Shown here: piece after piece, positions 6,976 through 64,000 of the stretch | Layout: the number at the start of each line of letters is the position of its first letter | How positions within the stretch are numbered: the stretch's first letter is position 1 | NCBI GenBank assembly: GCA_951804945.1 | Contig: OX638150.1 | Span: 68,324,001 to 68,388,000, forward strand | Length of the DNA: 64,000 nt | DNA from: Podarcis cretensis | Lineage: Eukaryota | Direction: 5' to 3' | Notes under the pieces: model-generated | What the model was told of the DNA's origin: nothing | Database searches by the model: none | Seen by the model: only the letters and a program-made list of their open reading frames with translations | Position numbers and translations under genes: made by a program

Positions 6976-9900
6976 TCAAGAGCATCTTCCCATGTGCAGG
7001 AGACCGAGACTCCCGTTACTTTTCCTAGAAAAATAGGATTTACAAATGTAAATTAAAGCCATTGGTCTGTGAAGACACAGGATTATATATGGCAGGAACT
7101 GATGAATAATGATATACCAGTCTACTTATGGAAGGCCAAGTTCAGAACTTTTAAGGAAGAGAAAATTCCTGACTTAATTTTCCTTCACTTCTCATTTTTT
7201 ATTTGTAGGGATCCTGGTTCTGAGATGCTGAAATAGTCTTACTTTGTCATTTTGTATCTATATCATACCCTCCAACATGTTTAGGCCAAAAACCGGGACA
7301 GGCGTCTTCCCAGGTGCGCTCCCGCACGGTCCATGTGACATCACAATAACGTGCGTTTTTGGGCGCCCTACTGAGAGCAGGGTACCCAAAAATGGAATGT
7401 CCTGATTTAATTGCTATATGTTTATTGGGAGGAATAGCAGTGAGTAAAAACAGACCAGTCCATTTAACAGCAGGAGACCCCCTTGACTGCCAATAAGGGC
7501 CAGTGCAGGCCCAACACCACAGGCAACTCAAGCAACTGTTAAGGGCAGTGACATTTTTAGGGACACCAGTCAAACAGTGCACAATCTGAAAGATGCATCT
7601 TTCACATATCTATTTTTTCTCTACATCAAAGCAACACATTTTGTGTGCCAAAGCTAAACTCTGACTCGTGCAAAAAGGATACCAATAATAGAAATGGACA
7701 TTATTTGCATGCAGAATTATTTTTTTATCATTTATTTCTTGTCTGCCAGTTTTGGTGAGGGGCAAAGAACTCTGCAAGGCACTGAGCCTCACTTTCTCGT
7801 GATTGGAAAGCCTTCTTAACTCCCATTTTACCCCATCTTGACTGTGTATTCAAGGGCCAGAAAGCTGTATCACATCATACACTGACTGTCTCTCCATCCT
7901 GCTACGATAGGGAGAGTTGTCACCAACAGCTTGGAGGAGCCAAACAATTCCCTCTTTTAATCCTCTTGTAGCTGATGCATCATGCTGGGAAAACTCCCCT
8001 ACCTTGTTTGCATAGTTATACATCCTTGTAAAGTCTTAACTCATAGAACAGCAATCTCTTGTAAACCCAGGTTGGTAGGTTGGTTGGTTGTTTTTTTTTT
8101 AATACCAGTGGGAATCTCTCTGATTTGGCTCTAATATAGTCTCAGAAGATCACAAGTACATTCACTTGTTGAATGCTTAAATGTGCGAACCTTATTCCAA
8201 CATCGTATAGAGGCAAATTTCTTCCTGACTTCAACAAGAAACTAATTCCTAGCAAGGCTGGATTCATTGGGGGTCTCTGGGCAGAAACATAAAGTTGGTG
8301 GAAACATAATTTCCATAAAAGGAGAGGACATGCAAATCCTGAAAATAAGTTTCACTAACTGTAGCATAGAGGTAGCCAACACAACAGAGAGTGCACATCA
8401 GTCAGTAGACATTTTTTCAGTCCTGAAGCCTGGAATTGACCATGAAAGCAACATAATAATTATATTTTCATCTGCTGTGCATATAGAGCTCTCTTCAATA
8501 TACTTACTCAACTGCCTTGCAAAAAGCACACTTGTTTCCGTAGGTCTGGCCATCTGTGCCGCAGTGAGGGTTAGATTCCCTGGTGCAGTATGGTTCATTG
8601 TTATCAAACTCACTGCAGTCAATAGCCTAAAGGGATAAGAAACAGCCTTTAAGTGATAGTTTTCTTTATAGTTCAGAGGATCCAGATTCTCAAGATGACT
8701 GAGGGGGCCCGACAGGATATCACACGATGTCCTGATGCCACGTATGTAATGTGAGGAGCTAGGGGCAGAGCCAAATCCCATCTGAACACTGAGGGGGCCA
8801 GCTTCCTAAAAAAACATAGCCCCCCTGAAACTGCCTTGATCCCTAGGAATCTGTGCCCATGGTCCTATTAGTCCTGCCAGTTTGCACTCATGACTGAAAC
8901 AAGGGCCATTCCGCATACCAGCTTAAACAGTTTTATAACAGCCAATTCTGAATCAGGATAGCCTAACCAATGTTGTCCATGCCCCTTAAAATTGCTTGCC
9001 TTGATCAGAAAACTTGGAAGAGCCATATTCTATTTGCCCCTTCCCCAGATGCCAACACAAAGGGAGAGGACAGGTGTGTAGGACCACGGGATTGGAGAAC
9101 TAATCCCTTTCAGGGTCAAGATAGGAACTCGTCTCTTCATAGCAACCTAATAGTAAGTCTAGATGTGAAATGGGGCCATATACAAGCAACATCCCAGAAG
9201 GAAATAAAAACAGCTGCACTGACCTCTCCCTCACGTTGGCTGGTAACATCTGTAACAGAAAGGAACAGCAAGGCTTACTAACATATTATAGACCTAATAC
9301 CGAAGGAGTTATAGAATCAGAATATTGTATGTATTTATAAACTGAACTTTATAAACTTCACTTTCATGAAAATATGACAGGGCAGTGTACACCATACAAA
9401 ATTGCAAGGGGAGAAAGAAAAGAATTCTGCAATTGCTGCTCAAAGTTTCCCTCAAGTTAGAAAGACCGTCATTGTTAGGTACACATAATATTATACAAAA
9501 ATCATGCAGTCCTGATGTGTGTAGGTAGCACCATTGCACTAGCTTAGCATTTTCTTCTTAGTGTATTTATTTGCTTTGTTAAGATTTTATCCTCTCCTTA
9601 CTTCCAAAGGAGCCCAGGGTGGAATACACATTTTTTTAAAAAAAATACAATCCATTTAAAACAGCCATATAAAAGTACAATCAGTAAAACTGTTTAATCA
9701 TGTTGTCATACGTGACCACTAAACATACTTGGCTTGGTGTGTGCCAAGTTGTACAGATCTGCATAAATCTTACTTGTATTCCCAAGAGTGCGTGAAAGAA
9801 AACAATGAGGAACAGCAGTTATGTCAGATATGGACACCAGAATCTGGATAGCTGAGGTTGACACAGGTTATAGTCTTATATAGGTGAAATGCTCAGGTGA

Positions 9901-10157
9901 TGATGCTTTCAAGCAAGAATTGTCTTATCTTTTAATATCCCTACTGGTGTTGTCAACAGAAGCACAATTCATTTTACAACAAACGGTAGGAAAATATTCT
10001 GGTACATTCTGGGATAGCACCTCTCCCTCTTGGGAGCAGTCTTTTATGGAGACTGAGGCTGTTTTTTAAACAGTGGAGTCCTCCTTTTTTCTCACTTACC
10101 TGAGAAGAAGCAGAATACAGCCAGGCTCAGCAGCACAAAGACACCTGCAGTTTTCAT
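6976..10157 (-). CDS. SPINK6: Gene B: SPINK6-like single Kazal-domain serine protease inhibitor (4 exons, P1 Arg)
   Basis: Exons 10157-10100, 9249-9224, 8626-8508 and 7024-6976, all GT-AG, phases 1/0/2. Spliced protein [83 protein letters not shown]. The core matches mammalian SPINK6 as I recall it ([26 protein letters not shown]). AATAAA at 6815-6810; TATA-like near 10245-10255. Confidence 0.88.
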
Positions 10158-27233: not shown

Positions 27234-30200
27234 TTAGTCGTCAAATTTTCTGCAGTCTCCAAGGTTCCTCAGTCTAAGACGTCTTCCAGTTCGGCTGATG
27301 CGGGAAAGACAATGCGAAGAACTCAGGATGAGAATTCAGAAGATGCAAGCTTCATTATTACTCATTCAACAGAAATAGTATTGGTGAGAAAGGTAAGTTC
27401 ATCATTGCTCTATTTGTTGGGGAAGGGAAATGGATGAGAAAGAATCCTGTCCAATAACCTGAAGAGATAGGGTTAAGTATAATTGCTTGATTCTACATTG
27501 ACATTTAAAATAACTGCATGTGTATCACTCAAGACATGGCATTGGAAGCTAAGAAAGAGCAACAGAATGTCTAACATTTAAATGATTAACTGAGAATGTA
27601 TCTCTGCTACTCATCATGATCACATGGGGTATTCAATTGCAGTTCTCCATTTTAGGTGTGTGAGTTGGTCTTTGTTTTTCTGAAGAAGGGCTGAAGAGAT
27701 AGGAGGTCCAGGAGAAAATAGCCTCCAGGCTAATGGAGTCTGTGTGGAGAGAAAGAGCTTTGTTTTCAGCTCTAGGAAAAGTTATTTCATATTTCTAAGA
27801 TGTTAGGCCTGTGTTGAAACAAGCGCATGATATTATGAGACTATTGGGTGTGTCATTATTGTTTTGTGTCTGGTTTTGGAACAAGTTCTTTTAGCTTCTA
27901 AAGAGCTATATTAATAACCACAATAGCCGCTACCCATCAATCTAGACAATACTGAGCTGGATGAAGTGGCCTGACTCTGTATAAGGCAGCTTCTTATGTT
28001 CATATGTTCTTTCCAGGACCACTGCTTGGTAAAACACCCCCATTTTCCAGCTTACACTGTTCATCCATGTCAGAAGTTTCTGTAAGAGTATATGTTAAGA
28101 CTTCTCACCAGAGCAATTCTGAGATCCACATTAGGGAAGCGCCTAGTGTAAGCCTTTCCTACCTTCACAATAACTTTCTTATTACCCCCTAATTTCCTGA
28201 TGGACCTTTGAGTGATTTTTCTTCTGGGCCAACCTTACTACCTTTTGTGTCATGATAGGCATGGTGGGGCACTTCAACACGATTGCCCTCCTGACAGGGG
28301 CATCTCTGCTCCTTGGGGGTGGGGAAAGCGTGAAAGAGTATTGGGAAATGATCCATAATGAATTGAAAAAAATATATTTAAAAATACTCCCCCCCCAAAA
28401 GCCCAGAGTCCTTTCTGTTGGGGATAATTCAGACTTATATTCCCAGGTGTTAAAAAAGGTTATTTATGTATGATACTATTGCGGCCTGTGTTTTGTTAGC
28501 CCAAAAATGGAAAACAAGCAACGTCTCAACCAAAGACGAATGGCAACTTAAGTTGACAGAATATGCATGGCTTGCAGACTTAACATTTCCACCTCATAAG
28601 CAAAACCTGTACTCACATATACGCATTGCAGAAGTCACACTTGTTGCCATATGACACACCATCAGAGCCACAGTGGGGATTGAGTTCCAGGGTGCACTGT
28701 GGTTTTGGATATCCTCGACAATATCTCTACAGAGAGAGTAAATTTTACAGTATTACCCATTTTCTGGCAAATCTCATGTGGTTGCTTTTACCAGTCAGGT
28801 CTTAGTTGCACATCAGGTTTTTCTTGTTTTAAGAAATCACAAACACACCCGCCCCCAAAATGAATAGTAATGATCAAATGGGACAGGGCCGCAGTCTTAT
28901 TTTTGCACAAAGCAAATCTGCTGAACTCAAAGGCGACCTGCAAACATTACAACCAACTATGCTATAACTATGTGGAAGGACTGGCAAGGAGAGAGGCAGT
29001 GCAAAAAGCCATCTGTGTAAACTCCAATAAAGTAGAAGCAGAAGAAGAAGAGTTTGGATTTGATATCCCGCCTTTCACTCCCCTTAAGGAGTCTCAAAGC
29101 GGCTAACATTCTCCTTTCCCTTCCTCCCCCACAACAAACACTCTGTGAGGTGCGTGGGGTTGAGAGACTTCAGAGAAGTGTGACTAGCCCAAGGTCACCC
29201 AGCAGCTGCATGTGGGGAGCAGGGACGTGAACTCGGTTCACCAGATTACGAGTCTACTGCTCTTAACCACTACACCACACTGGCTTTCATGAAGTAGCCC
29301 TCTACTCCATGAATTTGTCTAATCCCTTTCAATGCCATCAAGGGGGGTAGCCATCACTGCCTCCTGTGGGAGCGAGTTCTATAGTTTAACCATGAGCTGC
29401 AGGAAAAAGCAATATTACACATCTTGACAGCAAGTTATTTTGATGTTCTGTAATAAGAATAAATGACTGCCACTCACCCGTTCAAAACTTGCTTCAGTGA
29501 CAATGGCTAGAATGAAAACATAAAAAATGTAAAAATTCCAAAGCAAATCTACATGTTGAATAATAGTCCATTTGAGAACATTCATTTCTGGGAATGTAAG
29601 AGTGAGATGCATTTTATCTTACACTTCCTTTTTGCGTGCCAAGGCCCTGTGACCCACAATTCCCTAGTGGATAAATAAACACACGGAAAGTGGATTTTGG
29701 TTTATGGGTTTGAATACGCCACAACTTTATTGGTTACAGATGTGAGTGGTTTGTCTTAGGCATTGGATGAAGACAGACTATATCTCGACTTCTGCCCGTC
29801 TGCAGGGAGTAACCAAACCACCAAAAGGGGGAGCCCTATGACTTACATAAAATAGGGGCACCCTCCGGGTTTCCTGTTGGGATTGTGGCATGGCCCTAGC
29901 TCACGTTCAGGCATTGGACAGAACCACACCCCTGGATTCCTTTAACAAGATACCCTTAATGAGGAGGGGAAGATGGAGGCTACAACCTCCCCTCCAACCA
30001 AACAAAGGCTTACCCAATGCCTGACTTATTTCTCCATTTGAAAACATTTATTTCTAGGAAGAGAAAAATGAGATACATTTTATCTTACATTTCCTTTGTT
30101 CTCTTAAAAGTTCATTTATAGGAGCTGAATTTAAATGTCCCTGATCAGTTGATGGGAAGAGAATCAAATCAAACTAGCTAATCAGTTGACGATACTAATA

Positions 30201-30388
30201 AAGAAAACATGTATATACCCATTCAACTCCTAGCTGAACTGAAGCCCATTCTGTTGCTTTCAGTAGGGTGACAGAGCAAATCTCACATGACAAGATATTC
30301 TTTCTCATTCCTACTGACTAATTTCATATAGAAGCTTCCTTGAGAATAGCTACCTCTGAACATTCAAAAGAATATGTGAGGGTTCAAC

Positions 30389-30429
<41 letters not shown>

Positions 30430-30743
30430 TGTGTGCGTGTGTGTGTGTGTGTTTGAGAGATGTGCTTCTCTGTTCCCATGTCCCTGTGTGGGACAACAAT
30501 GCCTCCTTCTTCCACAAGCTTTCACAAATGAAGCACTGAGGTTTGCAGGGAGATTTTATCAGATTCAGTTGACAACCTAATAAGAGCCTTCATACAGTCT
30601 TTGGAACACCTGGACAATTCATGGATTTTGGGTTCCTTTCTGAGATGGAGTATCTAATGGAACATTTGTAATGTGAAATATGACTCACCTGAGCACAAAA
30701 AGAAGAGCATCAGAGTAAGGAGGATAAAGCTGCTTGGCTTCAT
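27234..30743 (-). CDS. Gene D: single Kazal inhibitor (4 exons, P1 Leu)
   Basis: Exons 30743-30689, 29506-29478, 28726-28617 and 27294-27234. Protein [88 protein letters not shown] ~30841-30850; AATAAA 27093-27088. Confidence 0.9.
28320..28585 (+). mobile_element. L1/Tx1 ORF2 C-terminal fragment in intron 3 of gene D
   Basis: [11 protein letters not shown] and AQKWK...EWQLKLTEY resemble the L1 ORF at 2632-3150. Confidence 0.7.
29035..29286 (-). mobile_element. tRNA-derived squamate SINE in intron 2 of gene D
   Basis: Reverse complement begins AGCCAGTGTGGTGTAGTGGTTAAGAGC (A-box) and ends in a (TTC)n tail; a related decayed copy lies at ~17730-17910. Confidence 0.7.
29648..30030 (-). mobile_element. 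LTR-like insertion in intron 1 of gene D
   Basis: Begins TGTGAC; contains GCCACAACTTTATT; intron sequence (GCATTTTATCTTACA) is duplicated on either side. Confidence 0.5.
30390..30452. repeat. (TG)n microsatellite
   Basis: Read directly; other microsatellites at 1133-1155, 6072-6101, 6346-6390 and 58385-58448. Confidence 0.95.
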
Positions 30744-35340: not shown

Positions 35341-38300
35341 ATGAAGCCAAGCAGCTTTCTCTTCCTCACTCTGATGGTCTTCTTTTTGTACTCAGGTGAG
35401 TCATATTTCATATTGAAAAAGTTCTCTTTCTCGGAGAGGTGTAGGGACCAAAGAATCCATGGACTATTCATGTCTTCAGATGAGTGTAGGAAGGCTCCAC
35501 CTGTGTTGACTAAATCCAGTTAAAATCTCCTTGCAAACCATTGTGTTTGCTGCTTTAAACCTTACGGAAGGAGGGGACATTGTTTTTAAGGATAGGGACC
35601 CTGGGGGCAGGGGCACACATCCCCCCAAAACACATACACACTTGAGCCTTCCCACATTCTTTTGGGCACTGAAACATGTCTGTTCTCAAGGTTCCTCATA
35701 TATGAAATGATATGTGCCAGGAAGAACCAGAATGAATGTCTTGCTATGTTAAATTTACTCTATCAAATAAAGATGCTGTACATCAGGGCTCTACATTGCA
35801 CACAGCGCCCACCACTTTTCACACAATAGGAGCCTTTTTGAAAGCTGAAGCTCAAAACACAAATGCCCCCTGAAGCTACCCTGTACCCTCTTTTCTTCAT
35901 GGTCTCCTTGTGGCACTTGTGACATCAAAAGTGGACCCAGCCATGATTCTAAACATGCAAAGCACCACAGCCAGGCATTCAAGGGAAATCAACAGAACTG
36001 GGTCCCAGTTAGATATGGACTAGACCAGTATATACAGTTATTTGTAATTATTATAGTTAACAGACTGAACCATTTCCCATTGATTTGATTGTCTTCCTAT
36101 CCATGCTCAGTGACATTTGAAGGAAATTGCATATTGCCAAGGCACTTTTTAGGATAACATAGGATGTACAAGATACAATGCACCCCACTTTTCAGTTCCT
36201 AGAAATGAATGTTATCAAATGGACTATTATGCACCATATGGATTTGCGAAATAATTTCCACATTTTCTGTGTTTTGCATCTAGATGTTGTTGTGAAAGCA
36301 ACATGGGAAGCGGTAAGTGGGAAATCATTTATTCTTATGATAGAACATGGAAGTAGCATGGAGTTAAGATAAGTGAATTTATACTTCTTTTGGAATTTTA
36401 AAATATTCTCTCTCTGTGTGTGTGATTATGTGTGTGTCAATTTTTAAAATAGAATTTAAAATACAGGGAACAAAAACACATCGACACAAATATAGCATAC
36501 AAGAGCTGGGTTTTTCCCAGGATTTCACATCTCTAATCCCACCCCTTTAAAAAATAAAATAAAAAAGTTGGTGGTATTATTAGTTCCAGTTGCTACCCAC
36601 AATTTATAAGAGAGTCTCAGCTTGTCTTCAGTAGTAGCCTTGTGGGGTTATTCAGTTATTACTAGGCAGACCGCCCAACCTTGCAGGCATATTATTTGGC
36701 CACTGTCTTAAGAATCCAGGCACTCACTGTGTGTTTTTTTAAAGTATTTTTTTGCAAAAACAACCGTTAAATGTGTCTAGCATGAAACCCCTAGAGCTGC
36801 TCACTCCCAATTTGGCAAGATTAATCTTCTCTGAGGGGACTACCATGTCTGCAAATTTTGTTTCACAGCATGAAAAAATTTGTACCTGTTCTAACCCTGC
36901 AATATTTTAAACTTTAAGGTGTCTTGCATGTAATCCCTGGCACTGAGGATCTATAATTTGACAGGTGTAAGCACCCACAATGGGTAGTCCAAAGATTAAG
37001 CGGGGAGGACCTTTAAAACTGTTGTGTCCTTCGTCTTCAGAAATATTGCAAAGGGTATCCAAAGTCAATATGCACCATGGAGTACCAGGCCCACTGCGGT
37101 TCTGATGGCGAGACCTATGGCAACAAGTGTTTCTTCTGCAATGCATATATGTGAGTATATCATGGAATCATAGAGTTGGAAGGGACCCTGAGAGTCATGT
37201 AGTTTAACCTCATGCAGTGCAGGAATCCTTTTTCCCCCTCTGACATCTTTGTTGGAAGTTAAAAAGTACGTGGTTATATTTGCAATAAGCATGGTGAGAT
37301 GTAAATAAAAAAATGGAAAAGAAAAAGAGAATCAGCACCCATGTAGAAGGGAAAGTCAAGCAGGGGGACACCCCTCCCCTGGGAAGTGCAGGAATCACTT
37401 TGCAGAATGTCAGGTTCTAAGCCATGGCCCTGAGTTTTGTGTTGCTTATGAGGCCCAAAGGAACATGGTGAGTAGAGCTAATCTTTAGGTAGCCCAGAAT
37501 TTGAAAATGGAGTGGATTGGGAGGGCTATTCACATGCACAACCCTCCCGCTAAGAGTGATGGGGGGGAGGGGAAATATGCCCAGAAGGGCTCTATCACCA
37601 TCCCACCAGGCCAGACACAACGCAAAAGGTAGTAGGGATGGCCCAGAAGAAAAATAACCAAAAAAGCCATCAGGGAATTAGGGGATAAAGGTAAAGGGAC
37701 CCCTGATCATTAGGTCCAGTTGTGACCGACTCTGGGGTTGCAGCGTTCATTTTGCTTTATTGGCCGAGGGAGCCGGCGTACAGCTTCTGGGTCATGTGGC
37801 CAGCATGACTAAGCCGCTTCTGGTGAACCAGAGCAGTGCACGGAAACGCTGTTTACTTTCCTGCCGGAGCGGTACCTATTTATCTACTTGCACTGTGACG
37901 TGCTTTTGAACTGCTAGGTTGGCAGGAGCTGGGACCGAGCAACGGGAGCTCACCCCGTCGTGCGGATTTGAACCGCCGACCTTCTGATCGGCAAGTCCTA
38001 GGCTCTGTGGTTTAACCCTCAGCGCCACCCACGTCCCACAATTAGGGGATAGTAAGAACATTATTATGAAGGCCTACATTACAAAGGCCTACACTAGGTG
38101 TTTCCTTAATGTGGATCTTGGAACAGCTCTAGGTAAAAGTCTGAACATTTCCTCCTAGAGAAGTTTGACACAGATGTACGATGAAGGCGGGAGAAGGGGG
38201 ATCTTCTACAAATGGTAGACCTGAAAAGAATATTGTTCTCTCTTGCTCTATATTGGCTAGGCTGACAGGAAGCTGTTTTCCAGGGTCTCAGACAGGATTC

Positions 38301-38499
38301 CTCCTCAGCCCTTTCCCATCCCAAAGACAAAGAGCAATGATGGCATAAGCTTTCCCACCTATATAGTATTTCTCTTTAAGGAGCTATAATGAAAGCTTCA
38401 TCTTATGAATTCTCATATTTATTTACTTCTTTTTTTCTCATTAGCAAAAGTGGAAGAAAGCTGGAACTGAAATACTATGGAGAATGCAAAAAAGCTTAA
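35341..38499 (+). CDS. Gene E: single Kazal inhibitor (4 exons, P1 Met), inverted relative to the rest of the cluster
   Basis: Exons 35341-35395, 36284-36312, 37041-37150 and 38445-38499. Protein [90 protein letters not shown] ~35227; AATAAA 38647-38652. Confidence 0.92.
37688..38037 (-). mobile_element. Sauria SINE in intron 3 of gene E, TSD AATTAGGGGATA
   Basis: TSD on both sides; the empty site is visible in paralogs G (~55750) and H (~61470). Confidence 0.9.
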
Positions 38500-46600: not shown

Positions 46601-47967
46601 GGAGTTTAGATGTGGCTGGCATGAAAACCTATGGAAGCAGATGTCTGCAATTTTGTAATGCAATTTCTTTTGAAGGGGCCACAGTGTCTCCTGATTTCAG
46701 ACTCCCAATTCCCACATTCTGAAAACGAGAATCATATACAGGCCAATTTTTGATACAATGCAAGTCACTGATCTCGAATCGGATTAGGGAGGGGCGTCCT
46801 ATTGGGAAGACCCAGTTTTCTGAGTGCATGTTCTGGAAGTTGGGCAATAGGGGCAGTACAGGATTCCTTTTGGTGTACCGACTTCCCCGCTGCACTAAGG
46901 ATTCCCTGGCCAAGCTGCTTCAGGTCGTGGCAGATGTCTTCCTGGAGACACCTAGTTTGGTTGTCCTAGGCAGAGGCAGAGCTAGCTGCTCTGGCATCCG
47001 TAGCGGCGCACATGCTGTGCACCCAGGGGCGGGGCCAGCACCCAGGGGGCGGGGCGAGCATCCCAGGCCAATTTATATACAGGCCAATTTGTGATACAAT
47101 GCACGTCTCTGGTTTTGAATCAGATGGGGGGGCTACTGAGGTTATTAATATTACATTTATGGGAGCAATAGGATGAATAAAAACGGACTCTTCTTGGAAA
47201 AAAATTGTCCAGTCCTCTTCTGCACAGCCTAACCTGCCTCCCTCGGGGATTTCCCAAATCCACCAGAGAAATCAAGGATACACAGTGGGACCCCCAAGTG
47301 GGGAAAACAAGGAGGAGGGAAATCCCATTGCAATGACATTAATTCTTGAGCTAGTGCAAGGATGTAGCTGAATACCAACTTGGGTGGCATATATCAATTC
47401 ATATGGTGGTAATTGGATTTTCTATGTGTACTTTTATTTCTCTGCTTCTCTTTCTCATTTTCTTCCATTAAAAATCAATAGAAAAGAAAAGTATCATGGC
47501 AGGGTAATGGGTTCTAGCCTCAATGTCTAACTAATCACCTGGCTGTCAACAGGTGGTTTGGGGTTTTCTTAATCTGCAGAAATCCATTGTCTGCAGTCAG
47601 AAGTGTTACAGTCCAGAGGGAGTAGATTAGGCTGATTGTTTAAAACTCAGTTCCTTGATTGTGTGTTATGTACTAATTCTTGCACTAGTGCAAGGATGTA
47701 GCTGAATACTAACTTGGATGACATATATAAATTCTATTCTTAATATGTTTAAGAATAGATAACACACAAGTAAATGTATGGGGAGTTTGATAATGTTGCT
47801 GAGCTTATTTATTGATGAACTGAATTAAGATGTTGCGAAGTATTCACTGGCTCACAGAGCATAACCAAAGAGAATAATGGAATTTTTTTTGGGGGGTGTG
47901 TGATGCAATGAGTGAAGCTTGAAGAGGAATGGGACTTCTCTGCAGATGTTCCATAGTCTTGTGCATC

Positions 47968-50900
47968 TTAAACTCTTCTGCATTCTCCAAAGTGCATTAG
48001 TATCAGCTGTCTATTCTTTATTCTGATGAGAAAAAAATAAATACGAGAATTCATAACATGTAAGTTTCCTTATAACTCATTAAAGATAAATACTATATAG
48101 GTGGGAAAACTAAGTTCATTATTGCCCTAAGTCCTGGGGAGGGAAGGGGCTATGGAAGAATAATGTCTGAGTCCCTGGAGAGCTTCTGCCATTTGCCTAG
48201 ACAATATCGAACAAGATGGACCAGTGTTCCTTTCAGCTCCACCGCTTGGTGGAAGATCCGTCTTCTCCACCCTTCATTGTTGATCTGTGTCACAGAACAT
48301 AGAACTGATTTGGGCATCTTTCCCCTGCCCTCTCCTCCCACAGGAGCCCACTTAGCAGCAGCAACAACAGTACTGTCAGGAGGGTGGTGCATGTGAATCC
48401 ATTTGAGTTTAAAATTCAAGGCGGTCTACAGATTAGCTCTGCTCACCATGTTCATTTAGGCCTCATATGCAACACATAACCCACATTGTGCAAAAAAAAT
48501 AAAAATTCCTGCATTGCAGGGGTTTGAACTAGATGATCCTTGTGGTCCCTTCCGACTCTACAATTCTATGGTTCTCTCCATTCTGAAGGAAATCAGCCCT
48601 GAGTGCTCACTGGAAGGACAGATCGTGAAGCTGAGGCTCCAATACTTTGGCCACCTCATGAGAAGAGAAGACTCCCTGGAAAAGACCCAGAGGTTGGGAA
48701 AGATGGAGGGCACAAGGAGAAGGGGATGACAGAGGACGAGATGGTTGGACAGTGTTCTCGAAGCTACAAACATGAGTTTGACCAAACTGTGGGAGGCAGT
48801 GGAAGACGGGAGTGCCTGGTGTGCTTGGTCTATGGGGTCACAAAGAGTTGGACACGACTAAACGACAACAAAATGATATACTCACATATATTCATTGCAG
48901 AAGTGACACCGGTTGCTATAGGTCTTGCCATCAGAACCACAGTGGGCATGATACTCCTCAGTGCATATGACTTTTGGGTACCCTTGGCAATATTTCTGAA
49001 GAAAAAGGACACAGCACTTATTAAGGGCTCCTCCCCCCTTAACCTCTGGACTGCAAGGCCTTTCTGACTATGACTTGCCTAATAATGAAGCACAGATAAC
49101 AAATACACCAAGTGTTAATTTAAGATATGCATTCAAGCACAGGAAAAGCTGGTTTATCATCCTGCCAAGCAGTGAATTGCATGATAATGTTGTTCCATAT
49201 TCAACCCAAGTTACCACTTCTTCCAAAGACAGGTTGATGCTCCCAGACATGACGTATGTGTGTGTGTGATTCCTGTATTCAGTTCGTAGGAAGAGAATTT
49301 CAGCTCTGTTTTGCTTTAGTGAGCATTGCTCTTCCCAACTATTAACAGGCTGGAAAGGGGCAGAAAGGTACTCCCATCTGAGGCTCTTCCAGCTCTTGGC
49401 AGTCAGAAGGAAAGCTGGGAACGTGGATTATTTTTTGCCATTTAGACTGTGCCAGCTCCACACAGCAGAGAAGTCCAGTGTTTAGGAGCCTTGGGGATTT
49501 ACTTCCAACCTTGTTATCAGCATGTGTACTGACTGTGTGATGGCCTGGGATTCAGATTTGAATGCTGAACCTGAGGAATCCCAGCCTGCACAGGATTCCC
49601 CGCTTCCAGAACCAGCTGAGCTGGGGCTGGGGCATGAGCCTGAAGGGTCCTCACTTGTGTTGGATCCTCAGGTGCAGGCACCAGCTGAGTCTGCTCTGGC
49701 TCCTGAGGGGATGGAGGACCCATTGCCTGCAGGTGCTCCACCCTCAGCCCCATCAGAGGAAGCTGAGGTTGCCTCTGGGTCCGGTAACCCTCCAGCCTCT
49801 CCTGAGCTGCAGAGGCTCAGGGCAGAGAGGCGGAGGGAACTAAGTTCCCTCAGGAGGAGTGCTCGCCTTCAGGCCAGGAGAGGCAATTCACCTGTGGATT
49901 GGGGCCACCCTATGCCTCGGGGGAGATAAAAGCCAGCCAGCCCCAAGTTGCAGGAGCAACATCGTTGGTTGTCAGTAGCAGCCTGATCCCTGCCCTGCTT
50001 CCATGCCGGAGCTTCTGACCTCACCCGACACCCTGCCCTGCAACCAGCTTCGACTTTTATGGACTGCCTTCATTTTGCACCATTAACCTCGGACTGGACT
50101 CGGACCTCACCTCTCGACTAGTCCCCAGGACCAGCACAGACAGTGTGTGTGCTTTCCTCATGTGGAAATTGCAACCTTCAACTTCCTCCCTTTATTTGTA
50201 CCTCCAGCTGGCACCAATCAAGCCTAGAGTGCCACTCGCACACACTAAACAAAATTCTGGAACCCTTTTTAAAGCTTCAAGGAACTTTTATTTGTTTCTT
50301 AAAGAATATTTTCTTAACGCTATCATAATATTTGGCACTTACCGCTTCCCATGATGCTTTAACAGCAACATCTAGAAGCAAAAGACAGAAAATGTAAAGT
50401 TATAAAGAAAATCCGTATATTGAATAACAGTTCATATTAGAACAGTTATTTCTAGGAACAAAAAATGAGCATTGTATCTTCTACATCCCTAGCCGGAATT
50501 AAGATTCCTGGAAGAAATATCAACAACCTCAGATGTGCAGATAACACAACCTTGATGGCAGAAAGTGAGGAGGAATTAAAGAACCTTTTATTGAAGGTGA
50601 AAGAGGAGAGCACAAAATATGGTCTGAAGCTCAACATCAAAAAAACGAAGATCATGGCCACTCGTCCCATCACCTCCTGGCAAATAGAAGGGGAAGAAAT
50701 GGAGGCAGTGAGAGATTTTACTTTCTTGGGCTCCATGATCACTGCAGATGGTGACAGCAGCCACAAAATTAAAAGACACCTGCTTCTTGGGAGAAAAGCA
50801 ATGACAAACCTAGACAGCATCTTAAAAAGTAGAGACATCACCTTGCCAACAAAGGTCCGTATAGTAAAAGCTATGGTTTTCCCAGTAGTGATGTATGGAA

Positions 50901-52895
50901 GTGAGAGCTGGACCATAAATAAGGCTGATCGCCAAAGAATTGATGCTTTTGAATTATGGTGCTGGAGGAGACTCTTGAGAGTCCCATGGACTGCAAGAAG
51001 ATCAAACGTATCCATTCTTAAGGAAATCAGCCCCGAGTGCTCACTGGAAGGACAGATCGTGAAGCTGAGGCTCCAATACTTTGGCCACCTCATGAGAAGA
51101 GACGACTCCCTGGAAAAGACCCTGATGCTGGGAAAGATGGAGGGCACAAGGAGAAGGGCACAAGGAGATGGTTGGATAGTGTTCTTGAAGCTACCAGCAT
51201 GAGTTTGACCAAACTGCAGGATGCAGTGGAAGACAGAAGTGCCTGGCGTGCTCTGGTCCATGGGGTCACGAAGAGTCGGACACGACTAAACAACAACAGA
51301 CTTCCGGGTTAGCGCCATCGGCAATGGCGGCGTTCCTCTGATTGAGAGGAGTGATAAAAGGAACTTGTGTCCCTCTAAAGGGAGCTTTGTCATATTGTCG
51401 TAAGGATGCAGCTGGGAAATTGCTTTTAAAGATAAAAGCTCTGAGAAACTAGTTTTTGACCTTGGACTGTTTAAGGATGGCGGTTGGGAAGGAAGTCGAG
51501 TGTGAACTGAACAGGACATTTTATCTGTTGGGAAAGCTGCAAGACCAGATAAATGTTATGGCTACCAATGTTGTAATCTTGGGAACAAAAGTGGGCATTA
51601 GTAAAGAAGCTGACAAGAACTTGGCACAGGAACATCTTCCAACTGAACAAATCGAAGAATTTGAGAAGGAGAAACTTGTTGTGATTAAAGTGATGAAAGG
51701 GGGAGCCGTAACCCTACAAAAGCAAATGGTGGATTATAATTCGAGGCCCTACATGATGGCAACCAGGAGGAGCCAGTTTTTGGAGATGGAAGCCTGGCTT
51801 GGTTTGGAAAATGAAAGGATTTGCTGAAATATCTATATGAATTAGAATACAAAGAGGGGAGATGTGAGGAGGTCAAGGAGATAAGTTAAGAAAAGGAGTT
51901 ATATTAAGGTTTAATTTGTTCTTTTGCTTTTTTGGATTTGTATTCTTTTTTCCTTTTTAGCTGTTTTTGCTTTTTTATTTTCCTATTTTTATTTTTCTCT
52001 TGGATATGTTTTGTTTTTATATATTGTGTTTTTCTTTGTAACCTTTTAAAACTTGAATAAATATTATTGAAAAACAACAACAACAACATCTTCTACATCC
52101 TTTGTTATACTGAAAGTGCACCCATAATGTGGCTTGGAAATATGCAATTTACTTTAAATGTCACAGGGCATGGATTTGAAGATAATCAAATCAATGGAAA
52201 ATGGTGTAATCAGTTAAATAGGAATAACTGAATATACTGATTCATTTACTAGCTAACTGGGTACCATTTTTTTAATTTCAGTGGAATACCCAGCTGTGGT
52301 GCCGTGTGTGTTTAGAATTGTTCCCAAGTCTACCATTTATCTTACAAGAGCCATGTAGAGATTGTGAAGGAAGCATGGTGTGTGGTGGTAGTAGCTTTAG
52401 GGGGCATTAATGTTTGAAGTCTCACCTCACAAAGAGGTTCCTATTGGGTGGAAAGTGCTGGGCACTATCAGGAATGAAGAGCCCTGATGGATTGTGAATC
52501 TCACATGGCAAGACATTCATTCTGGTTCTTCCTGACATTCATCATTTCATGTAGGAGGAACCTTGAGAATAGACATGTTTCAGTATTCAAATGAATGTGG
52601 GAAAGGCTCAAGTGTGTGTGTGTGTGTTTTGGGGGGATGTGTGTCCCTATGTTTGACCAATGTCCTCTCCTTCATTTAGCTTTCAGACATCAAATACCAA
52701 GGTATGCAGGGAGATTTTAACTGGATTTAATTAACACAGGTGGAGCCTTCCTACACTCATCTGAATACATGAATAGTCTAGGGTTTGGTCCCTACACCTC
52801 TCCAAGAAAGAGAACTTTTGCAATATGAAATATGACTCACCTGAGTACAAAAAGAAGACCATCAGAGTGAGGAGGAGAAAGCTGCTTGGCTTCAT
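47968..52895 (-). CDS. Gene F: single Kazal inhibitor (4 exons, P1 Glu)
   Basis: Exons 52895-52841, 50371-50343, 48995-48886 and 48022-47968. Protein [82 protein letters not shown]. Splice sites intact; AATAAA near 47810. Confidence 0.9.
48570..48872 (+). mobile_element. BovB 3' fragment in intron 3 of gene F
   Basis: [30 protein letters not shown]; the tail ends ~15 bp from the exon 3 donor. Confidence 0.88.
49536..50138 (+). mobile_element. Solo LTR (TG...CA, ~600 bp) in intron 2 of gene F
   Basis: TGTGATGG...CCAGCACA termini with near-perfect 5-bp TSD GACTG/GACAG; GC-rich. Orientation is tentative. Confidence 0.7.
50490..51298 (+). mobile_element. RTE-BovB LINE, 3' RT portion, in intron 1 of gene F
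   Basis: ORF 50465-51202 [15 protein letters not shown]...[26 protein letters not shown]; outer TSD ATCTTCTACATCC at 50477-50489 and 52088-52100. Confidence 0.92.
51299..52075 (+). mobile_element. Non-autonomous L1-like element inserted into the BovB (CAA)n tail
   Basis: Starts GACTTCCGG...ATGGCGGC; short coiled-coil-like ORF 51456-51827; AATAAA and A-tail; AACAACAAC on both sides. Confidence 0.55.
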
Positions 52896-53837
52896 GATTT
52901 TTCTGGTGGGTTTGGATCTGTTGGCCTCTTAGTGCTTTTCCAAGCAGTAGATGCTTTTCAGATTCCACTGGTTACGATGAGGTATGGCATCTCTTCCATG
53001 TATTTATGGAAGTTTCTGCAGCCTTGATGATGAAATCTCCCAATTTCTGAGAAATATTTACACGTGCAAATGTGATTATACAGGACTGCAATGTTTTCTG
53101 CCAGTTTTAATGGTTCCCCTTAAGTGCACATTCCCTGTGTGTGCAAGAAATATTTGGCAACCAGATCCTTAGGAAATACGGCTTCTGATGCAATGATGAC
53201 ATTGCTGTTACAGGTCACAAAAAATGAGGTACAAACAAAACAGTTTTAGAAATTCTTGGATTCTTTTGACCCAGGCAATCATTTTAGCACAAAGAAAAAC
53301 AAATGAGCCTTACTCGTTCAGCATGTATGTCATAAAATAAAAGAGGTATTGTTGTCCCAGAAAGCAATACAAACACATTATATACGTCAAACACACTTAT
53401 TATCTTTAATTGTTTAAAACCACAGAAGTGGAAAACAAGCATAGAGAAAACAAGATTTGCTTGATAGGAGAAAACAAGCCATGAATGTATGGCGTGAGCA
53501 TCTTGGATTTCCATTGTTTGAGGCCATTTTCTTCTGAATACAAGTTACTGGGAAAACAGCAGGTGGGTCCAGTGTTTTTGCCCTCAGGTCCTGCTTGCAG
53601 GCATCCCATAGGCATCTGGTTGTCAGCTGTGAGAACAGGATGCTGGGACAGAAGAGACATGGGCATGATCCCACATCTTGGCCAATTTTGGAAACAAGAA
53701 GCTGGCAGGAGAAAGTCTGGACCTTGGGTCTGGAGAGTTTGGAGGATTCCAAATCTTGGCAGAGCTATGTCCCACTTTGTCGCTCAAAGGAGCTTCCCCT
53801 GATCCTATGCATTTTTACTCAGCAGTAAGCCTTATGA

Positions 53838-54184
53838 AGGGACGCAGGTGGCGCTGTGGGTTAAAGCCTCAGCGCCTAGGACTTGCCGATCGAAAGGTCG
53901 GCGGTTCGAATCCCTGCGGTGGGGTGCCCAGCGCCTGCCAACCTAGCAGTTCGAAAGCACCTCCAGGTGCAAGTAGATAAATAGGGACCGCTTACCAGCG
54001 GGAAGGTAAATGGCGTTTCCGTGTGCGGCTCTGGCTCGCCAGAGCAGCTTCGTCATGCTGGCCACGTGACCCGGAAGTGTCTCCGGACAGCGCTGGCCCC
54101 TGGCCTCTTAAGTGAGATGGGCGCACAACCCCAGAGTCTGTCAAGACTGGCCCGTACGGGCAGGGGTACCTTTACCTTTACCTT
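53838..54184 (+). mobile_element. Sauria SINE with TSD TAAGCCTTATGAAG
   Basis: TSD on both sides; empty site in the duplicate at ~59888-59901. Confidence 0.92.
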
Positions 54185-55309
54185 AAGCCTTATGAAGTAA
54201 GGATTCTCTTTCAAGGAAGAGTGAATAGGATTGAAGCCTGACACTTTATCAGATGTTTGCACAACATGGGGGTACTTCCTGCCATTCCCTGCCATAAGCA
54301 GATATTCTGATGAGCAGTTGAGTTGCCTTCCAGTGGAAAAGGCTGATGGGCGGACACTATTTTCTCTGCTCTGTTGAGATTTCCTTGTGGAACAATACCT
54401 GTGAAAGTGAGGAGCTCTTCTGCCTTTCTCTCTCACTAAAACAAGATGGTTGCTGCCTCTAAGAGAAGTCCTAATGAACTGGGCAACTGGGCATATGCAG
54501 AACAGGATGATGGATCTGGTGGGCCATTGGCCTGATCCAGCAGCTGCTTCTTACGTTCCCCTTGGGCAGCAGAACGGTCTCCCCTTCCCACTCTCCTCCT
54601 CTGCATAGCCTAACCTGCCCTAGGGATTTCCCAAATCCACCAGAGCAACATAGGCAACACAGTATGAAACCCAGGTGGGGAAAGCAAGGAGGAGAGAAAT
54701 CCCATTGCATTAACATTAAGTCTTCTGATGGCACAATGATGTAGCTGGGTACCCAATTGAATGGCCTATATCAATTATATATTATATCAATTGATTTACT
54801 ATGTGTATTTTTCTCTTATAACTATGTCAGGTGTTTTTTTTTAATTTGCTTCGATTAAAAATCAATAGAAAAGCAAAGAAATGTATCATGGCAAGGGGAT
54901 GGGATTTAGCCTCAGTGTCTAACTAATCACCTTGCTCTCTACAGGTGGTTTTTTTTGGGTTTTTTACTCTGCAGAACTCAATTGCCAGAACTCAGAAATG
55001 TAATAGTCGAAAGGGAGAAGATTCTCCTGATTGTTTGACTCAGTTCCCTGATTGTGCGTTATTAGTAACAAACTTCAAGACCAATCTCTTGCCCAAATCA
55101 TATAATATTTTTAAGAATAGATAATACACAAATAAATATATGGAGAGTTTGATAATGTTGCTGAGCTTATTTATTGATAAACCGAATTAAGATGTTGCAA
55201 GATATTCACTGGCTCACAGAGGATAAGCAAAGAGAAGAATGGATTTATTTTTTTGTGGTGATGCGATGAGTGAATCTTAAAGAGTAATGGGACTTCTTTT
55301 GCAGGTGTT

Positions 55310-58300
55310 TCATAGTCTTGTGCATCTTCCTAAGTATTTCAGTTCCAGCTTTCTTCCACTTTTGCTAATGAGAAAAAAGAAGTAAATAAATATGAGAATT
55401 CATAAGATGCAGCTTTCATTATAACTCCTGAAAGAGAAATACTATATAGGTGGGAAAGCTTAGGCCATCATTGCTCTGTGTCTTGGGGATGGGAAAGGGC
55501 TGAGGAAGAATCCTGTCAGAGACCCTGGAAAACAGCTTCCTGTCAGCCTAGCCAATATTGAGCAAGAGGGACCAATATTCTTTTCAGGTCTACCCTTTGT
55601 GGAAGATTCCCCTTTGCCCGTCTTCATTGTAAATCTGAGTCAAACTACTCCAGGGGTAAACGTTCAGACATTTACCTAGAGCAATTCCAAGATCCACATT
55701 AAGGAAACACCTAGTGTAGGCCTTTGTTACCTTCAGAATAATGTTCTTACTATCCCCTAATTCCCTGATGGCTTTTTTGGTTATTTTTCTTCTGGGCCAA
55801 CCCTACTACTTTTTGCGTTGAGTCTGGCCTGGTGGGATGGCGATAGAGCCCATTTGGGCATATTTCCCCTCCCCGTGCCCCTGGATCACTCTTAGAAGCA
55901 GTAACAAGAGTGTCAGGAGGGTGGTGCATGTGAATAGCCCTCCCAAGCCACTCCATCTTCAAATTCAGGGCTACCAACAAATTAGCTCTGCTCACCATGT
56001 TCCTTTGGGCTCCATAAGCAACACATAACTCAGGAGAGGGGTTTCCCTCCGCTTGACTTTCCCTTCTACATGGGTGCTGATTCTCTTTTTCTTTTCAGTT
56101 CTTTTATTTACATCTCACCATGCTTAGTGAAAATATAATCATGTACTTTTTAACTTCCAACAAAGATGTCTGGGGGGGGGGGAATGATTCCTGCACTCCA
56201 GGAGGTTGGACTACATGACTCTCGGGGTTCCTTCCAACTGCATGATTCTTTGATATACTCACATATATGCATTGCAGAAGAGACACTGGTTTCCATAGGT
56301 CTTGCCATCAGAGCCACAGTGGGGATTAAGCTCCCTGGTGCATACTGGTTTTGGATACCCTTTGCAATATTTCTGAAGATGAAGGACACAACACTTTTAA
56401 ATGTCCTCCCAACTTAACTTTTGGACTGCAAGGCCTTTCTGAATGTGACATGATTAAGAATGAGGCAAAGATGAGGAATGCAAATGACAGTACGCCAAGT
56501 ATTATATTAAGGTGTACATTCAAGCACATGAAATGCTGATTTATCATTCTGGCAAGCAGTGAATTGTGTGATAAAGTTGTTCTTGGGGCATGTGATTTGG
56601 TGACATGGTAAGGCCCCATTGCGGGGGCTGAAACCTGCCAAATTATAGATCATCAGTGCCAGGGATTTCATGCAAGATACCTTAAAGTTTAAAATATTGC
56701 AGGGTTAGAACAGGTACAAAGTTTTTCACGCTGCAAAACAAAAATTGCAAACATGAGAAAATTAATCCTGTCAAATTGCGAGTGGGCAGCTCCAGGGGTT
56801 TCATGCTTGACACATTTAAGAGTGGTTTTTGCAAATAAATACTTCTTTAAGAGAAAAACACAATGAGTGCCTAGATTCATAAGACAGTGGCTAAGTAATA
56901 TGCCTGCAAGGTTGGGTGGTCTGTCTAGTAATAACAGAAAACCCCACTAGGCTACTACAGAACACAGTGGTAGTGCAACTCGTACAGCACATTGGCAACA
57001 AATATTCACACAGGTGTTCAAAAATAATTTTACACCATTTATCAAATATGTGAGACAATTACTTACAAAGTGCCATGAACACTTACAAACTACCTAAAAT
57101 AAAGTGAACTTGCAATATCAGATTTTCTACGTTCTTACAAATTCTTGACTCAGTTTTTCGTTTTTTCTTGTTTTTCAAATAAGTTCAAGGAGATTCAAGA
57201 AAAGGGCAAGTTCAACATTGTTCCCAGTAGCTGTGAGGTGCTGATGAAGCAGCGTATAAGAACGAAGACAGGGTTCCAGCGTTCTATCCCCGTTTTGCCT
57301 TAGCAGTCCATGCAATTGAGAGGCTGCTGTTTCGCCCCCAGTGGGGCCAATTTGTTGGGGTTGGCAGATAGCACACTCCCTGAGCACAGTTTTCTGGGCT
57401 TCTTCAGTTGTCTCATGCCATGTGTCTATTAGTGCTAACTGATAATAATCCAAACGGAATCTTATCAGAATCAACATAATACACTTCTAGGTGTTAAATT
57501 AGATACAAAGTAAATATAATTTCTCCCACTATATAGAAAGAATCAATTTTCATGCAAAAGTTCATAATTATGTACTTACATATCTCTGAAGAGACAATTT
57601 CTTGGCTTAAGCATACAAGACTGAATAGCTTAGCAAGGTAGCCCTGTTTGATTACAGATATATATATACATTCTCTCATTCTAGGTTTTTGAACAGGTGT
57701 TTTACATTAGTAGAGAGGTGAGGTTGTGAAGTAGAGGCTGGACATGATACTATTAATACTTACATCTCATACATTTCACATCCAGATACACATTTCAATA
57801 CCCATTGCTGTAATTAAATGAAAACTGAAAGATCTAATTCGGAATTTAATCCTACTGGCTGTAATGTTTTAATATTCAGGGAGTGTGCTATCCACCAACC
57901 CCAATGAATTGGCCCTGTCTTCTTTATTATACGCTGCTTCATCAGGACCTCACAGCTACTGGGAACAATGCTGAACTTGCCCTTTTCTTGAATCTTCTTG
58001 AACTTATTTGAAAAACAAGAAAATACAAAAAACAGAGTCAAGAATTTGTAAGAACCTAGTAAAATCTGATATTGCAAGTTCACTTTATTTTAGGTAGTTT
58101 GTAAGTTTTCATGGCACTTTATAAGTAATTGTCTCTTTCTCACATATTTGATAAATGGTGTAAAATGATTTTTGAACAACTGTGTGAATATTTGTCGCCA
58201 ACGTGCTGTATGAGTTGCACTATTTTGTTAATGACACAGGTTGCATTTTTCTAGTAGTACGACAAAACACAAGCTGAGACTTTCTTACAAATTGTGGGTA

Positions 58301-58382
58301 GCAACTGGAACTAATAATAATTCCACCGCCTTTTTTTAAAAAAAGGGATGGGACTAGAGATGTGAAACCATGGGGAAAACCC

Positions 58383-58451
<69 letters not shown>

Positions 58452-58575
58452 AATAATTAAAAATTCCACAAGAAATATAAATTCACTTATCTTAACTCCA
58501 TGCTACTTCCATGTTCTATCATAAGAATAAATGATTTCCTACTTACCTCTTCAAATGATGCTTTAACAACAACAT
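55310..58575 (-). pseudogene. Gene G: Kazal inhibitor copy with intact exons 2-4 (P1 Arg) but lacking exon 1 and promoter
   Basis: Exons 58575-58547 (DVVVKASFEE), 56372-56263 ([36 protein letters not shown]) and 55364-55310 ([18 protein letters not shown]). Intron-1 homology stops at ~58757 and no MKPSS-type exon is found before gene H. Confidence 0.8.
56967..58256 (-). mobile_element. Penelope-like element relic with long inverted repeats, in intron 2 of G
   Basis: Inverted repeat ~56971-57273 vs ~57913-58222. Minus frame ends IKTLQPVGLNSELDLSVFI*, resembling a PLE GIY-YIG C-terminus. Imperfect 14-bp TSD TACTACAGAACACA/TACGACAAAACACA; absent from gene E intron 2. Confidence 0.65.
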
Positions 58576-61027: not shown

Positions 61028-62088
61028 TCATAGTCTTGTGCATCTTCCTAAGTATTTCAGTTTCAGCTTTCTTCCACTTTTGCTAATGAGAAAAAAGAAG
61101 TAAATAAATATGAGAATTCATAAGATGCAGCTTTCATTATAACTCCTGAAAGAGAAATACTATATAGGTGGGAAAGCTTAGGCCATCATTGCTCTGTGTC
61201 TTGGGGATGGGAAAGGGCTGAGGAAGAATCCTGTCAGAGACCCTGGAAAACAGCTTCCTGTCAGCCTAGCCAATATTGAGCAAGAGGGACCAATATTCTT
61301 TTCAGGTCTACCCTTTGTGGAAGATTCCCCTTTGCCCGTCTTCATTGTAAATCTGAGTCAAACTACTCCAGGGGTAAACGTTCAGACATTTACCTAGAGC
61401 AATTCCAAGATCCACATTAAGGAAACACCTAGTATAGGCCTTTGTTACCTTCAGAATAATGTTCTTACTATCCCCTAATTCCCTGATGGCTTTTTTGGTT
61501 ATTTTTCTTCTGGGCCAACCCTACTACTTTTTGCGTTGAGTCTGGCCTGGTGGGATGGCGATAGAGCCCATTTGGGCATATTTCCCCTCCCCGTGCCCCT
61601 GGATCACTCTTAGAAGCAGTAACAAGAGTGTCAGGAGGGTGGTGCATGTGAATAGCCCTCCCAAGCCACTCCATCTTCAAATTCAGGGCTACCAACAAAT
61701 TAGCTCTGCTCACCATGTTCCTTTGGGCTCCATAAGCAACACATAACTCAGGAGAGGGGTTTCCCTCCGCTTGACTTTCCCTTCTACATGGGTGCTGATT
61801 CTCTTTTTCTTTTCAGTTCTTTTATTTACATCTCACCATGCTTAGTGAAAATATAATCATGTACTTTTTAACTTCCAACAAAGATGTCTGGGGGGGGGAA
61901 TGATTCCTGCACTCCAGGAGGTTGGACTACATGACTCTCGGGGTTCCTTCCAACTGCATGATTCTTTGATATACTCACATATATGCATTGCAGAAGAGAC
62001 ACTGGTTTCCATAGGTCTTGCCATCAGAGCCACAGTGGGGATTAAGCTCCCTGGTGCATACTGGTTTTGGATACCCTTTGCAATATTT
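61028..62088 (-). CDS. Gene H: exons 3-4 of a Kazal inhibitor (P1 Arg), near-identical duplicate of G; 5' exons beyond the right edge
   Basis: Exons 62088-61979 and 61082-61028: [54 protein letters not shown]. Differs from G by one E>K change in exon 4. Exon 2 is expected at ~64260. Confidence 0.85.
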
Positions 62089-62682
62089 CTGAAGATGAAG
62101 GACACAACACTTTTAAATGTCCTCCCAACTTAACTTTTGGACTGCAAGGCCTTTCTGAATGTGACATGATTAAGAATGAGGCAAAGATGAGGAATGCAAA
62201 TGACAGTACACCAAGTATTATATTAAGGTGTACATTCAAGCACATGAAATGCTGATTTATCATTCTGGCAAGCAGTGAATTGTGTGATAAAGTTGTTCTT
62301 GGGGCATGTGATTTGGTGACATGGTAAGGCCCCATTGCGGGGGCTGAAACCTGCCAAATTATAGATCATCAGTGCCAGGGATTTCATGCAAGATACCTTA
62401 AAGTTTAAAATATTGCAGGGTTAGAACAGGTACAAAGTTTTTCACGCTGCAAAACAAAAATTGCAAACATGAGAAAATTAATCCTGTCAAATTGCGAGTG
62501 GGCAGCTCCAGGGGTTTCATGCTTGACACATTTAAGAGTGGTTTTTGCAAATAAATACTTCTTTAAGAGAAAAACACAATGAGTGCCTAGATTCATAAGA
62601 CAGTGGCTAAGTAATATGCCTGCAAGGTTGGGTGGTCTGTCTAGTAATAACAGAAAACCCCACTAGGCTACTACAGAACACA

Positions 62683-63972: not shown

Positions 63973-64000
63973 GTACGACAAAACACAAGCTGAGACTTTC

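Follow-up and report, generated by a model that had tools for sequence, protein, structure and literature searches.

The window, a 64,000-nucleotide stretch of Podarcis cretensis DNA, includes gene F, an intact four-exon, single-domain Kazal gene within a lacertid tandem array, whose reactive loop carries glutamate at P1. By analogy with characterised inhibitors, we tentatively read gene F, at a likelihood somewhat short of probable, as a canonical inhibitor of microbial proteases of the subtilisin type and as one of a panel of P1 variants. The same Glu-P1 loop appears to have arisen more than once in squamates, within a family in which P1 is generally labile. The elements of gene F are as follows (window coordinates).

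53002..53008, minus strand: CATAAAT, a weak candidate TATA-like element, 113 nt upstream of the ATG
52841..52895, minus strand: exon 1, coding for the start and the signal peptide in 18 codons plus one base, GTGAGT donor
50343..50371, minus strand: exon 2, 29 nt, which codes for the N-terminal linker of the mature protein and is spliced to exon 3 in contig X18
48886..48995, minus strand: exon 3, 110 nt, CAG acceptor and GTGAGT donor, Kazal core with Cys1-Cys5
48957..48959, minus strand: P1 codon GAG, Glu41 of the precursor, with no other letter in four of four DNA runs
47968..48022, minus strand: coding part of exon 4, last strand, Cys6 and stop, joined to exon 3 in the X18 and X19 contigs
47780..47967, minus strand: 3' UTR, AATAAA at about 47813, with spliced contigs ending at 47780 and 47791

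The joined frame of 249 nt encodes 82 amino acids with a hydrophobic leader and six cysteines, and AG/GT ends are present on all four exons, in agreement with the original prediction that the Cys residues and splice sites are intact. The hydrophobic leader, encoded by a signal-peptide exon that differs from its counterpart in paralog E at one position in 54 nt, suggests that the product is secreted. The promoter had also been described as intact, but this part of the description is only weakly checkable: the CATAAAT element at -113, also present in paralog E, falls opposite the TATA box of paralog D in an alignment, and it is considered putative. The loop encoded by exon 3 reads C-T-E-E-Y-H-A-H-C, with its first Glu aligned with residue 18 of the turkey ovomucoid third domain, which rules out a wrong P1 register; the exon reading and the alignment thus agree on C-T-E|E-Y-H-A with GAG at P1, as predicted. 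A pseudogene is likewise ruled out by the intact four-exon frame and by splicing seen in a relative.

Gene F belongs to the Pfam family Kazal_1 (PF00050, MEROPS I1), scoring 48.2 bits against a cut-off of 21 (E 1.1e-12), with its six Cys residues in ovomucoid spacing, and its succession of signal-peptide, short linker, core, and terminal exons fits the SPINK-type secreted single-domain layout. The best single-domain PDB match is 1SGE (E 1.1e-11), an engineered Glu18 variant whose loop, C-T-E-E-Y, is identical to that of gene F. The turkey ovomucoid third domain and its Glu18 variant (1SGE, 2SGE) share the classical fold and Cys spacing with gene F, which differs from them in being a natural, free-standing one-domain gene with a different C-terminal strand, with His-Ala-His in place of Arg-Pro-Leu at P3'-P5', and with Ser for Gly32, His for Asn36, and Glu for Ala40. 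The predicted model of the P. muralis ortholog P0003 (74 of 82 amino acids identical, pLDDT 91.5) consists of a helix and a small sheet with an exposed loop, and superimposes on the ovomucoid third domain (OMTKY3) with an rmsd of 0.5-0.7 A over 49 residues. Residues supporting the loop, namely Thr40 at P2, Glu42 at P1', Tyr at P2', and the buttress Asn56, are present in gene F and in both orthologs. Scaffold residues agree with the consensus of the squamate family rows, the departures being P4', usually Pro but Ala in gene F (10 of 58 rows), and a helix position that is almost always Ala but Glu in gene F (3 of 58). Because the model overlays on ovomucoid and the P2, P1', P2', and buttress Asn residues are kept in three species, the standard mechanism may be taken as the default for gene F. 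The acidic P1 expected of inhibitors of the V8/GluC type is also present.

Glu was found at P1 in all four DNA runs (two organisms), each covering exon 3 of gene F in one piece; these runs comprise three samples of organism A, of which X3 is perhaps the source of this DNA, and one of organism B, and the contigs used in this allele check drop rare variants. The sole difference between organism B and gene F in exon 3 is a synonymous Lys codon at 48972, and X1 and X2 carry one further difference, which would lie towards a contig end, more than 100 nt from P1. The C-T-E-E-Y loop is also found in proteins of Zootoca vivipara (P0001) and Podarcis muralis (P0002, P0003), and gene F forms one starred clade (100/99) with its Zootoca and P. 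muralis orthologs, which are already auto-annotated as 'ovomucoid-like' in RefSeq. The orthologs XP_077779602.1 (P. muralis) and XP_060126949.1 (Z. vivipara) are identical to gene F at 74 and 70 of 82 positions, respectively, both with Glu at P1; across the three species P3-P2', all Cys residues, and the buttress Asn are unchanged, and 8 and 12 other positions differ. The residue at P3' is His in the window allele and in P0002, and Arg in P0001 and P0003, and the Ile at P4 of gene F corresponds to Gln in Zootoca and varies (Arg, Tyr, Met) among the snake Glu members. A check of Glu in resequenced individuals and sister species, proposed in the original prediction, thus came out in its favour, with Glu in all four runs (one perhaps the source) and in the three Podarcis and Zootoca proteins; a sequencing error or a rare allele is ruled out by the runs together with the three ortholog records. 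The end of a repeat, presumably an RTE/BovB-like LINE by its look, lies at window 48577-48873 and halts 13 nt from the exon-3 donor, with a junction common to organisms A and B.

Splicing is seen in contigs of a related organism, G (runs X18 and X19, from two studies), in which intron 3 is skipped exactly in both and intron 2 also in one, and which stop just past the AATAAA of gene F. Both runs are taken as RNA solely from this exact skipping, with exon 1 outside the stretch compared. The contigs differ from exon 3 of gene F in 5 of 111 and 4 of 90 letters, whereas paralog E is 85% alike, so they are assigned to the ortholog of gene F; they bear on the exon 2-3 and 3-4 joints rather than on the P1 codon. 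In raw reads of two RNA runs, X21 and X23 (6% and 12% of each run, no tissue label), depth on the exons of gene F was zero, and expression is therefore not broad. Against the possibility that the gene is not expressed, allowed for in the original prediction, stands the splicing in the related organism; the raw reads of these two runs showed no exon depth. The main text of two femoral-gland proteomes (PMC9000839, PMC8143647), whose supplements may list such proteins, does not name Kazal, ovomucoid, or SPINK, and a trace Kazal is mentioned for viper venom in PMC7460416.

The window covers part of a tandem Kazal cluster with 20 core exons in 184 kb (the window plus 40 kb on the left and 80 kb on the right). 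Besides gene F, the following members lie within it.

7000..10157, minus strand: SPINK6-like neighbour, loop C-T-R-E-S-N-P-H-C, nearly invariant across amniote matches, beside the fast-changing array
27234..30743, minus strand: paralog D (P1 Leu, CTG), a tandem-array member
35341..38499, plus strand: paralog E (P1 Met, ATG), the closest paralog of gene F in the window, inverted
55311..58575, minus strand: paralog G (P1 Arg, AGG), own exon 1 not found
61029..62088, minus strand: exons 3-4 of paralog H (P1 Arg), a 97% copy of the G block, with exon 2 just beyond the window

Among the F-like paralogs, P1 is encoded as Leu (CTG), Met (ATG), Glu (GAG), Arg (AGG, twice), Phe (TTC), and Lys (AAG, twice), and most of these codons are one base apart (CTG-ATG-AAG-GAG, ATG-AGG). 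SPINK6 belongs to the same gene cluster as gene F, and domain 2 of the mammalian double-headed submandibular inhibitor to the same His-Cys-Gly-Ser-Asp subfamily; their P1, Arg or Met, is conserved in amniotes, in contrast to the frequent switching of P1 in the squamate array. The loop of gene I (P1 Phe), C-I-F-E-K-R, is kept in Podarcis, Lacerta, and Zootoca. Paralogs G and H lie inside a 97%-identical 5.7-kb tandem duplication (window 54184-64000, continuing to window-equivalent 66860), in which both consist of exons 2-4 with no exon 1 of their own found, and a third copy of exon 4 alone. Either G and H are silent or they would have to use the first exon of gene I, which lies further upstream. 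In exon 4 of both (window 55311-55364 and 61029-61082, minus strand), a 17-nt deletion relative to paralog E removes the Cys6 codon and the stop, but it also shifts a TGC of the 3' UTR into the reading frame where Cys6 would stand, which preserves the sixth Cys. To the right of the window, at window-equivalent 75879-74313 (minus strand), another paralog has exons 1, 2, and 4 with the Kazal core exon not found; this reactive exon seems to have been deleted, exons 2 and 4 being only about 150 nt apart. A remnant resembling the 5' UTR and the start of exon 1 lies between genes D and E (window 33750-33791, minus strand).

The original prediction that acidic P1 is uncommon in vertebrate Kazal inhibitors holds loosely, with 12 of 140 domains in 110 proteins being acidic (9 Glu and 3 Asp, three of the 12 belonging to gene F orthologs), but strict rarity does not, as Glu at P1 is found again in other vertebrates (snakes, a gecko, a fish, and domain 1 of turkey ovomucoid). 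This vertebrate set consists of 109 of the 120 listed proteins (10 unnamed and one beetle dropped) and P0003. In the 58 squamate single-domain rows P1 is Leu in 23, Glu in 8, Lys in 8, Met in 7, Arg in 5, Phe in 3, Ala in 2, and Asp and His in one each, that is, acidic in 9 of 58; the vertebrate and squamate counts both lean upward, because the queries contained Glu members. The set open to every taxon has 152 proteins with 817 domains, 111 of them acidic at P1. The C-T-E-E-Y loop itself occurs in the snakes Pituophis, Ahaetulla, Liasis (two genes), and Naja, a two-headed gecko inhibitor has C-T-E-E-H, Glu at P1 is also found in a fish, and domain 1 of turkey ovomucoid (1YU6 chain C, identified as turkey by its third domain) naturally has C-T-E-D-L.

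The P1-Glu members do not form one clade. When the seven canonical Glu rows were forced to be monophyletic, with the P1 column dropped, the constraint was rejected (AU p 0.0005), and joining the lacertid clade to each of the snake Glu sets was rejected as well (p 0.003, 0.018, and 8e-17). A second test removed every loop column, held eight Glu rows together, and included 12 further rows; a single origin was again rejected (AU p 0.0005). These tests used 74-83 columns and left out long or duplicate branches (5 rows in the first test, 7 in the second), and a quick tree had been seen before they were set up. A single origin of Glu, with one squamate 'Glu-type' ortholog group, is thus rejected. 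On the tree, P1 undergoes 22 changes among 7 states, with 6 for Glu (at least three forced by starred branches), 6 for Lys, 6 for Met, and 10 for Leu; Glu as a specially recurrent state is not supported, since Lys and Met change equally often. Among the non-Glu rows, a Lacerta Lys paralog lies closest to the F clade, and the snake Glu rows P0181 and P0277 lie among Lys orthologs, from which the likely route to Glu would be a single transition, Lys AAG to GAG. The literature search, with most subscription papers outside its scope, returned no study of gene F or of repeated P1 Glu in squamates, and the repeated origin, as judged from these sequences, is the one new observation here, within the general lability of P1.

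In the domain, gene F and paralog E differ with dN 0.26 and dS 0.32 (dN/dS about 0.8, p 0.76), with no nonsynonymous excess. Exon 4 of gene F matches that of E at 37 of 55 nt, a lower share than in either neighbouring stretch: the UTR matches at 129 of 142 (p 1e-4), and the intron beside the exon at 119 of 146 (p 0.04). Much of the divergence of gene F thus lies away from the reactive loop. The stem branch of gene F is 0.29 and its tips 0.05-0.09, in a tree built on only 74 columns, which would fit a burst after duplication followed by constraint. Of the pathogen-driven neofunctionalisation advanced in the original prediction, the long stem and short tips are as expected after duplication, but dN/dS of F to E is about 0.8 and not above 1. 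The array evolves rapidly: in the Kazal domain, paralog E and gene I differ by 24.5 nonsynonymous and 1.5 synonymous changes (dN/dS about 5, one-sided p 0.04), and this pair (window 37041-38499 against gene I) hints at a stronger signal of positive selection than gene F gives.

If gene F is an inhibitor of subtilisin-type enzymes, its loop would dock in a substrate-like manner with the Glu-Glu bond at the catalytic Ser, and would block, by the standard mechanism, microbial serine proteases with broad pockets (subtilisin/proteinase-K type) and perhaps Glu-specific enzymes of the Streptomyces type as well; it would do so as part of a tandem panel with Leu, Met, Lys, Arg, Phe, and Glu at P1. In the ovomucoid P1 series, Glu costs orders of magnitude on chymotrypsin and elastase and much less on subtilisin. 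Glu would accordingly be expected to fit the wide S1 pocket of subtilisin and to weaken binding to host trypsin-, chymotrypsin-, and elastase-type enzymes, which would make gene F microbe-selective. Domain 2 of CrSPI-1 (horseshoe crab, 3QTL), with Cys-Thr-Glu-Glu-Tyr at P3-P2' as in gene F (a loop tabulated in PMC3004852), inhibits subtilisin with a Ki of 2.5-2.6 nM and was crystallised with it, its P1 Glu making most of the contacts (PMC3082530). Unlike gene F, it is part of a non-classical two-domain invertebrate Kazal with Asp-Pro at P3'-P4' and resembles gene F only distantly beyond the loop (E 5.6e-6), and the likeness of the two loops is convergent, not orthologous. Binding through a Glu at P1 varies with pH (PMC3601434). 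Conkazal-M1 (Conus magus), likened here by description, shares the Kazal fold and P1 Glu with gene F but is a venom peptide whose termini are long and which has an additional disulfide. Commercial GluC is taken here to be the V8 enzyme. Conkazal-M1 inhibits subtilisin A with a Ki of 1.1 uM and leaves GluC and chymotrypsin unaffected at 0.5-2 uM (PMC13101452). V8/GluC as the target, suggested in the original prediction, is thus disfavoured by a P1-Glu inhibitor that spared GluC and inhibited subtilisin (PMC13101452) and by the nanomolar inhibition of subtilisin by CrSPI-1 with the same P3-P2' loop (PMC3082530). The precedents for subtilisin are two non-classical invertebrate Kazals, one of them only micromolar. 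Furthermore, since Leu and Met at P1, as in paralogs D and E, also suit subtilisin (PMC3004852 counts the Leu18 form of the ovomucoid third domain among the inhibitors of subtilisin), subtilisin alone does not explain the need for Glu. The comparison of F with E, which gives no nonsynonymous excess, the frequency of changes to Glu, no higher than for Lys or Met, the substitutions at P4' and in the helix, and the zero exon depth in the X21 and X23 reads also speak against the preferred reading. Keratin-degrading skin fungi may be guessed as the natural target; a snake skin fungus encodes secreted subtilisins (bioRxiv 10.1101/2025.11.04.686605), which makes a target plausible but provides no link to gene F.

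The subtilisin reading, itself tentative, is ranked ahead of three others. One of these, which may hold together with it but which we consider unlikely, is that gene F is specialised for a Glu-specific microbial endopeptidase, the chymotrypsin fold of the Streptomyces or Bacillus type being likelier than staphylococcal V8 or exfoliative toxins. Komiyama and colleagues reportedly found in 1991 that the Glu18 ovomucoid third domain strongly inhibits the Glu-specific protease of S. griseus, and this variant docks canonically in the Streptomyces protease (1SGE/2SGE). P1 usually sets specificity (PMC3082530 and PMC13101452), and the independent presence of C-T-E-E-Y in lacertids, colubrids, python, and cobra fits a shared target missed by the Leu and Met paralogs. 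However, the one P1-Glu Kazal found to have been assayed on GluC left it active (PMC13101452), the literature search turned up no Kazal inhibitor from nature that acts on V8 or exfoliative toxin, which also weighs against such a specialisation, and Glu is no more recurrent on the tree than Lys or Met. A target in the host, such as a granzyme-B-like protease cleaving after Asp or Glu, is far less probable still. Granzyme B prefers Ile-Glu-Thr-Asp, its serpin inhibitor uses Glu at P1, and the Ile at P4 and Thr at P2 of gene F resemble this preference, but P4 is not kept: Zootoca has Gln there, and the snake Glu members have Arg, Tyr, or Met. According to a 2015 survey (PMC4646688), an Asp-ase-type gene is predicted in alligator, the only one among reptiles and birds with an equivalent of the chymase locus, whereas the granzyme-like genes of anole carry a tryptase triplet. 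The granzyme-B-like target offered in the original prediction is weakened by the same survey (PMC4646688), in which Asp-ases were not found in anole.

Glu might also be a near-neutral state of a hypervariable site, one transition away from Lys, with gene F weakly inhibitory or non-inhibitory and kept for its basic, His-rich surface or in slow decay; we give this a low probability. Consistent with it, P1 toggles freely (the 22 changes among 7 states, and Lys and Glu alternating in approximately 90%-identical snake orthologs), exon 4, away from the loop, has outpaced the UTR (37/55 against 129/142 alike to E, p 1e-4), and dN/dS of the domain from F to E is about 0.8. It is opposed by the constancy of P3-P2', the Cys residues, and the buttress Asn in three species despite 8 and 12 differences elsewhere, by the intact frame and splice sites, the splicing in a relative, and the synonymous nature of the sole exon-3 difference in organism B, and by other paralog groups, such as the Phe group, which hold their own P1 across genera in the manner of a maintained panel. 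We can also speculate, with little confidence, that the same C-T-E-E-Y loop was reached at least three times (lacertids, colubrids, pythons, cobra) under selection by a protease of a shared skin or gut microbe, sparing host proteases; the selector would then be a keratin-degrading fungal subtilisin or a Glu-specific enzyme, and the loops would repeat in nature what the Leu18Glu ovomucoid experiment did, while their proteins might be the first natural inhibitors of glutamyl endopeptidases from vertebrates.

Hypervariability of the reactive site in Kazal genes has long been known, and with several precedents for acidic P1 gene F would therefore strike a specialist as neat rather than surprising. 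If the preferred reading of gene F as a subtilisin inhibitor is true, lizards and snakes keep a panel of one-domain Kazals that swap a single specificity residue, with the Glu form selective for microbes, and this would offer an inexpensive and direct way of testing how the inhibitor arrays of reptiles follow microbial proteases, for example those of skin fungi. Inhibition of V8-type enzymes, if it occurred, would make gene F a natural scaffold of practical use. The P0180 cluster (P0274-P0277, P0181) supplies paired proteins of opposite P1 charge that could go straight into assays: its snake orthologs, approximately 90% alike, have P1 Glu in Naja and Liasis and Lys in Pituophis, Ahaetulla, Crotalus, and Vipera. 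A second, multi-domain ovoinhibitor-like Kazal array lies 18 Mb away (50.31-50.35 Mb) and comprises at least 10 core exons, two of them with Asp at P1 (C-T-D-D-Y and C-D-D-E-D).
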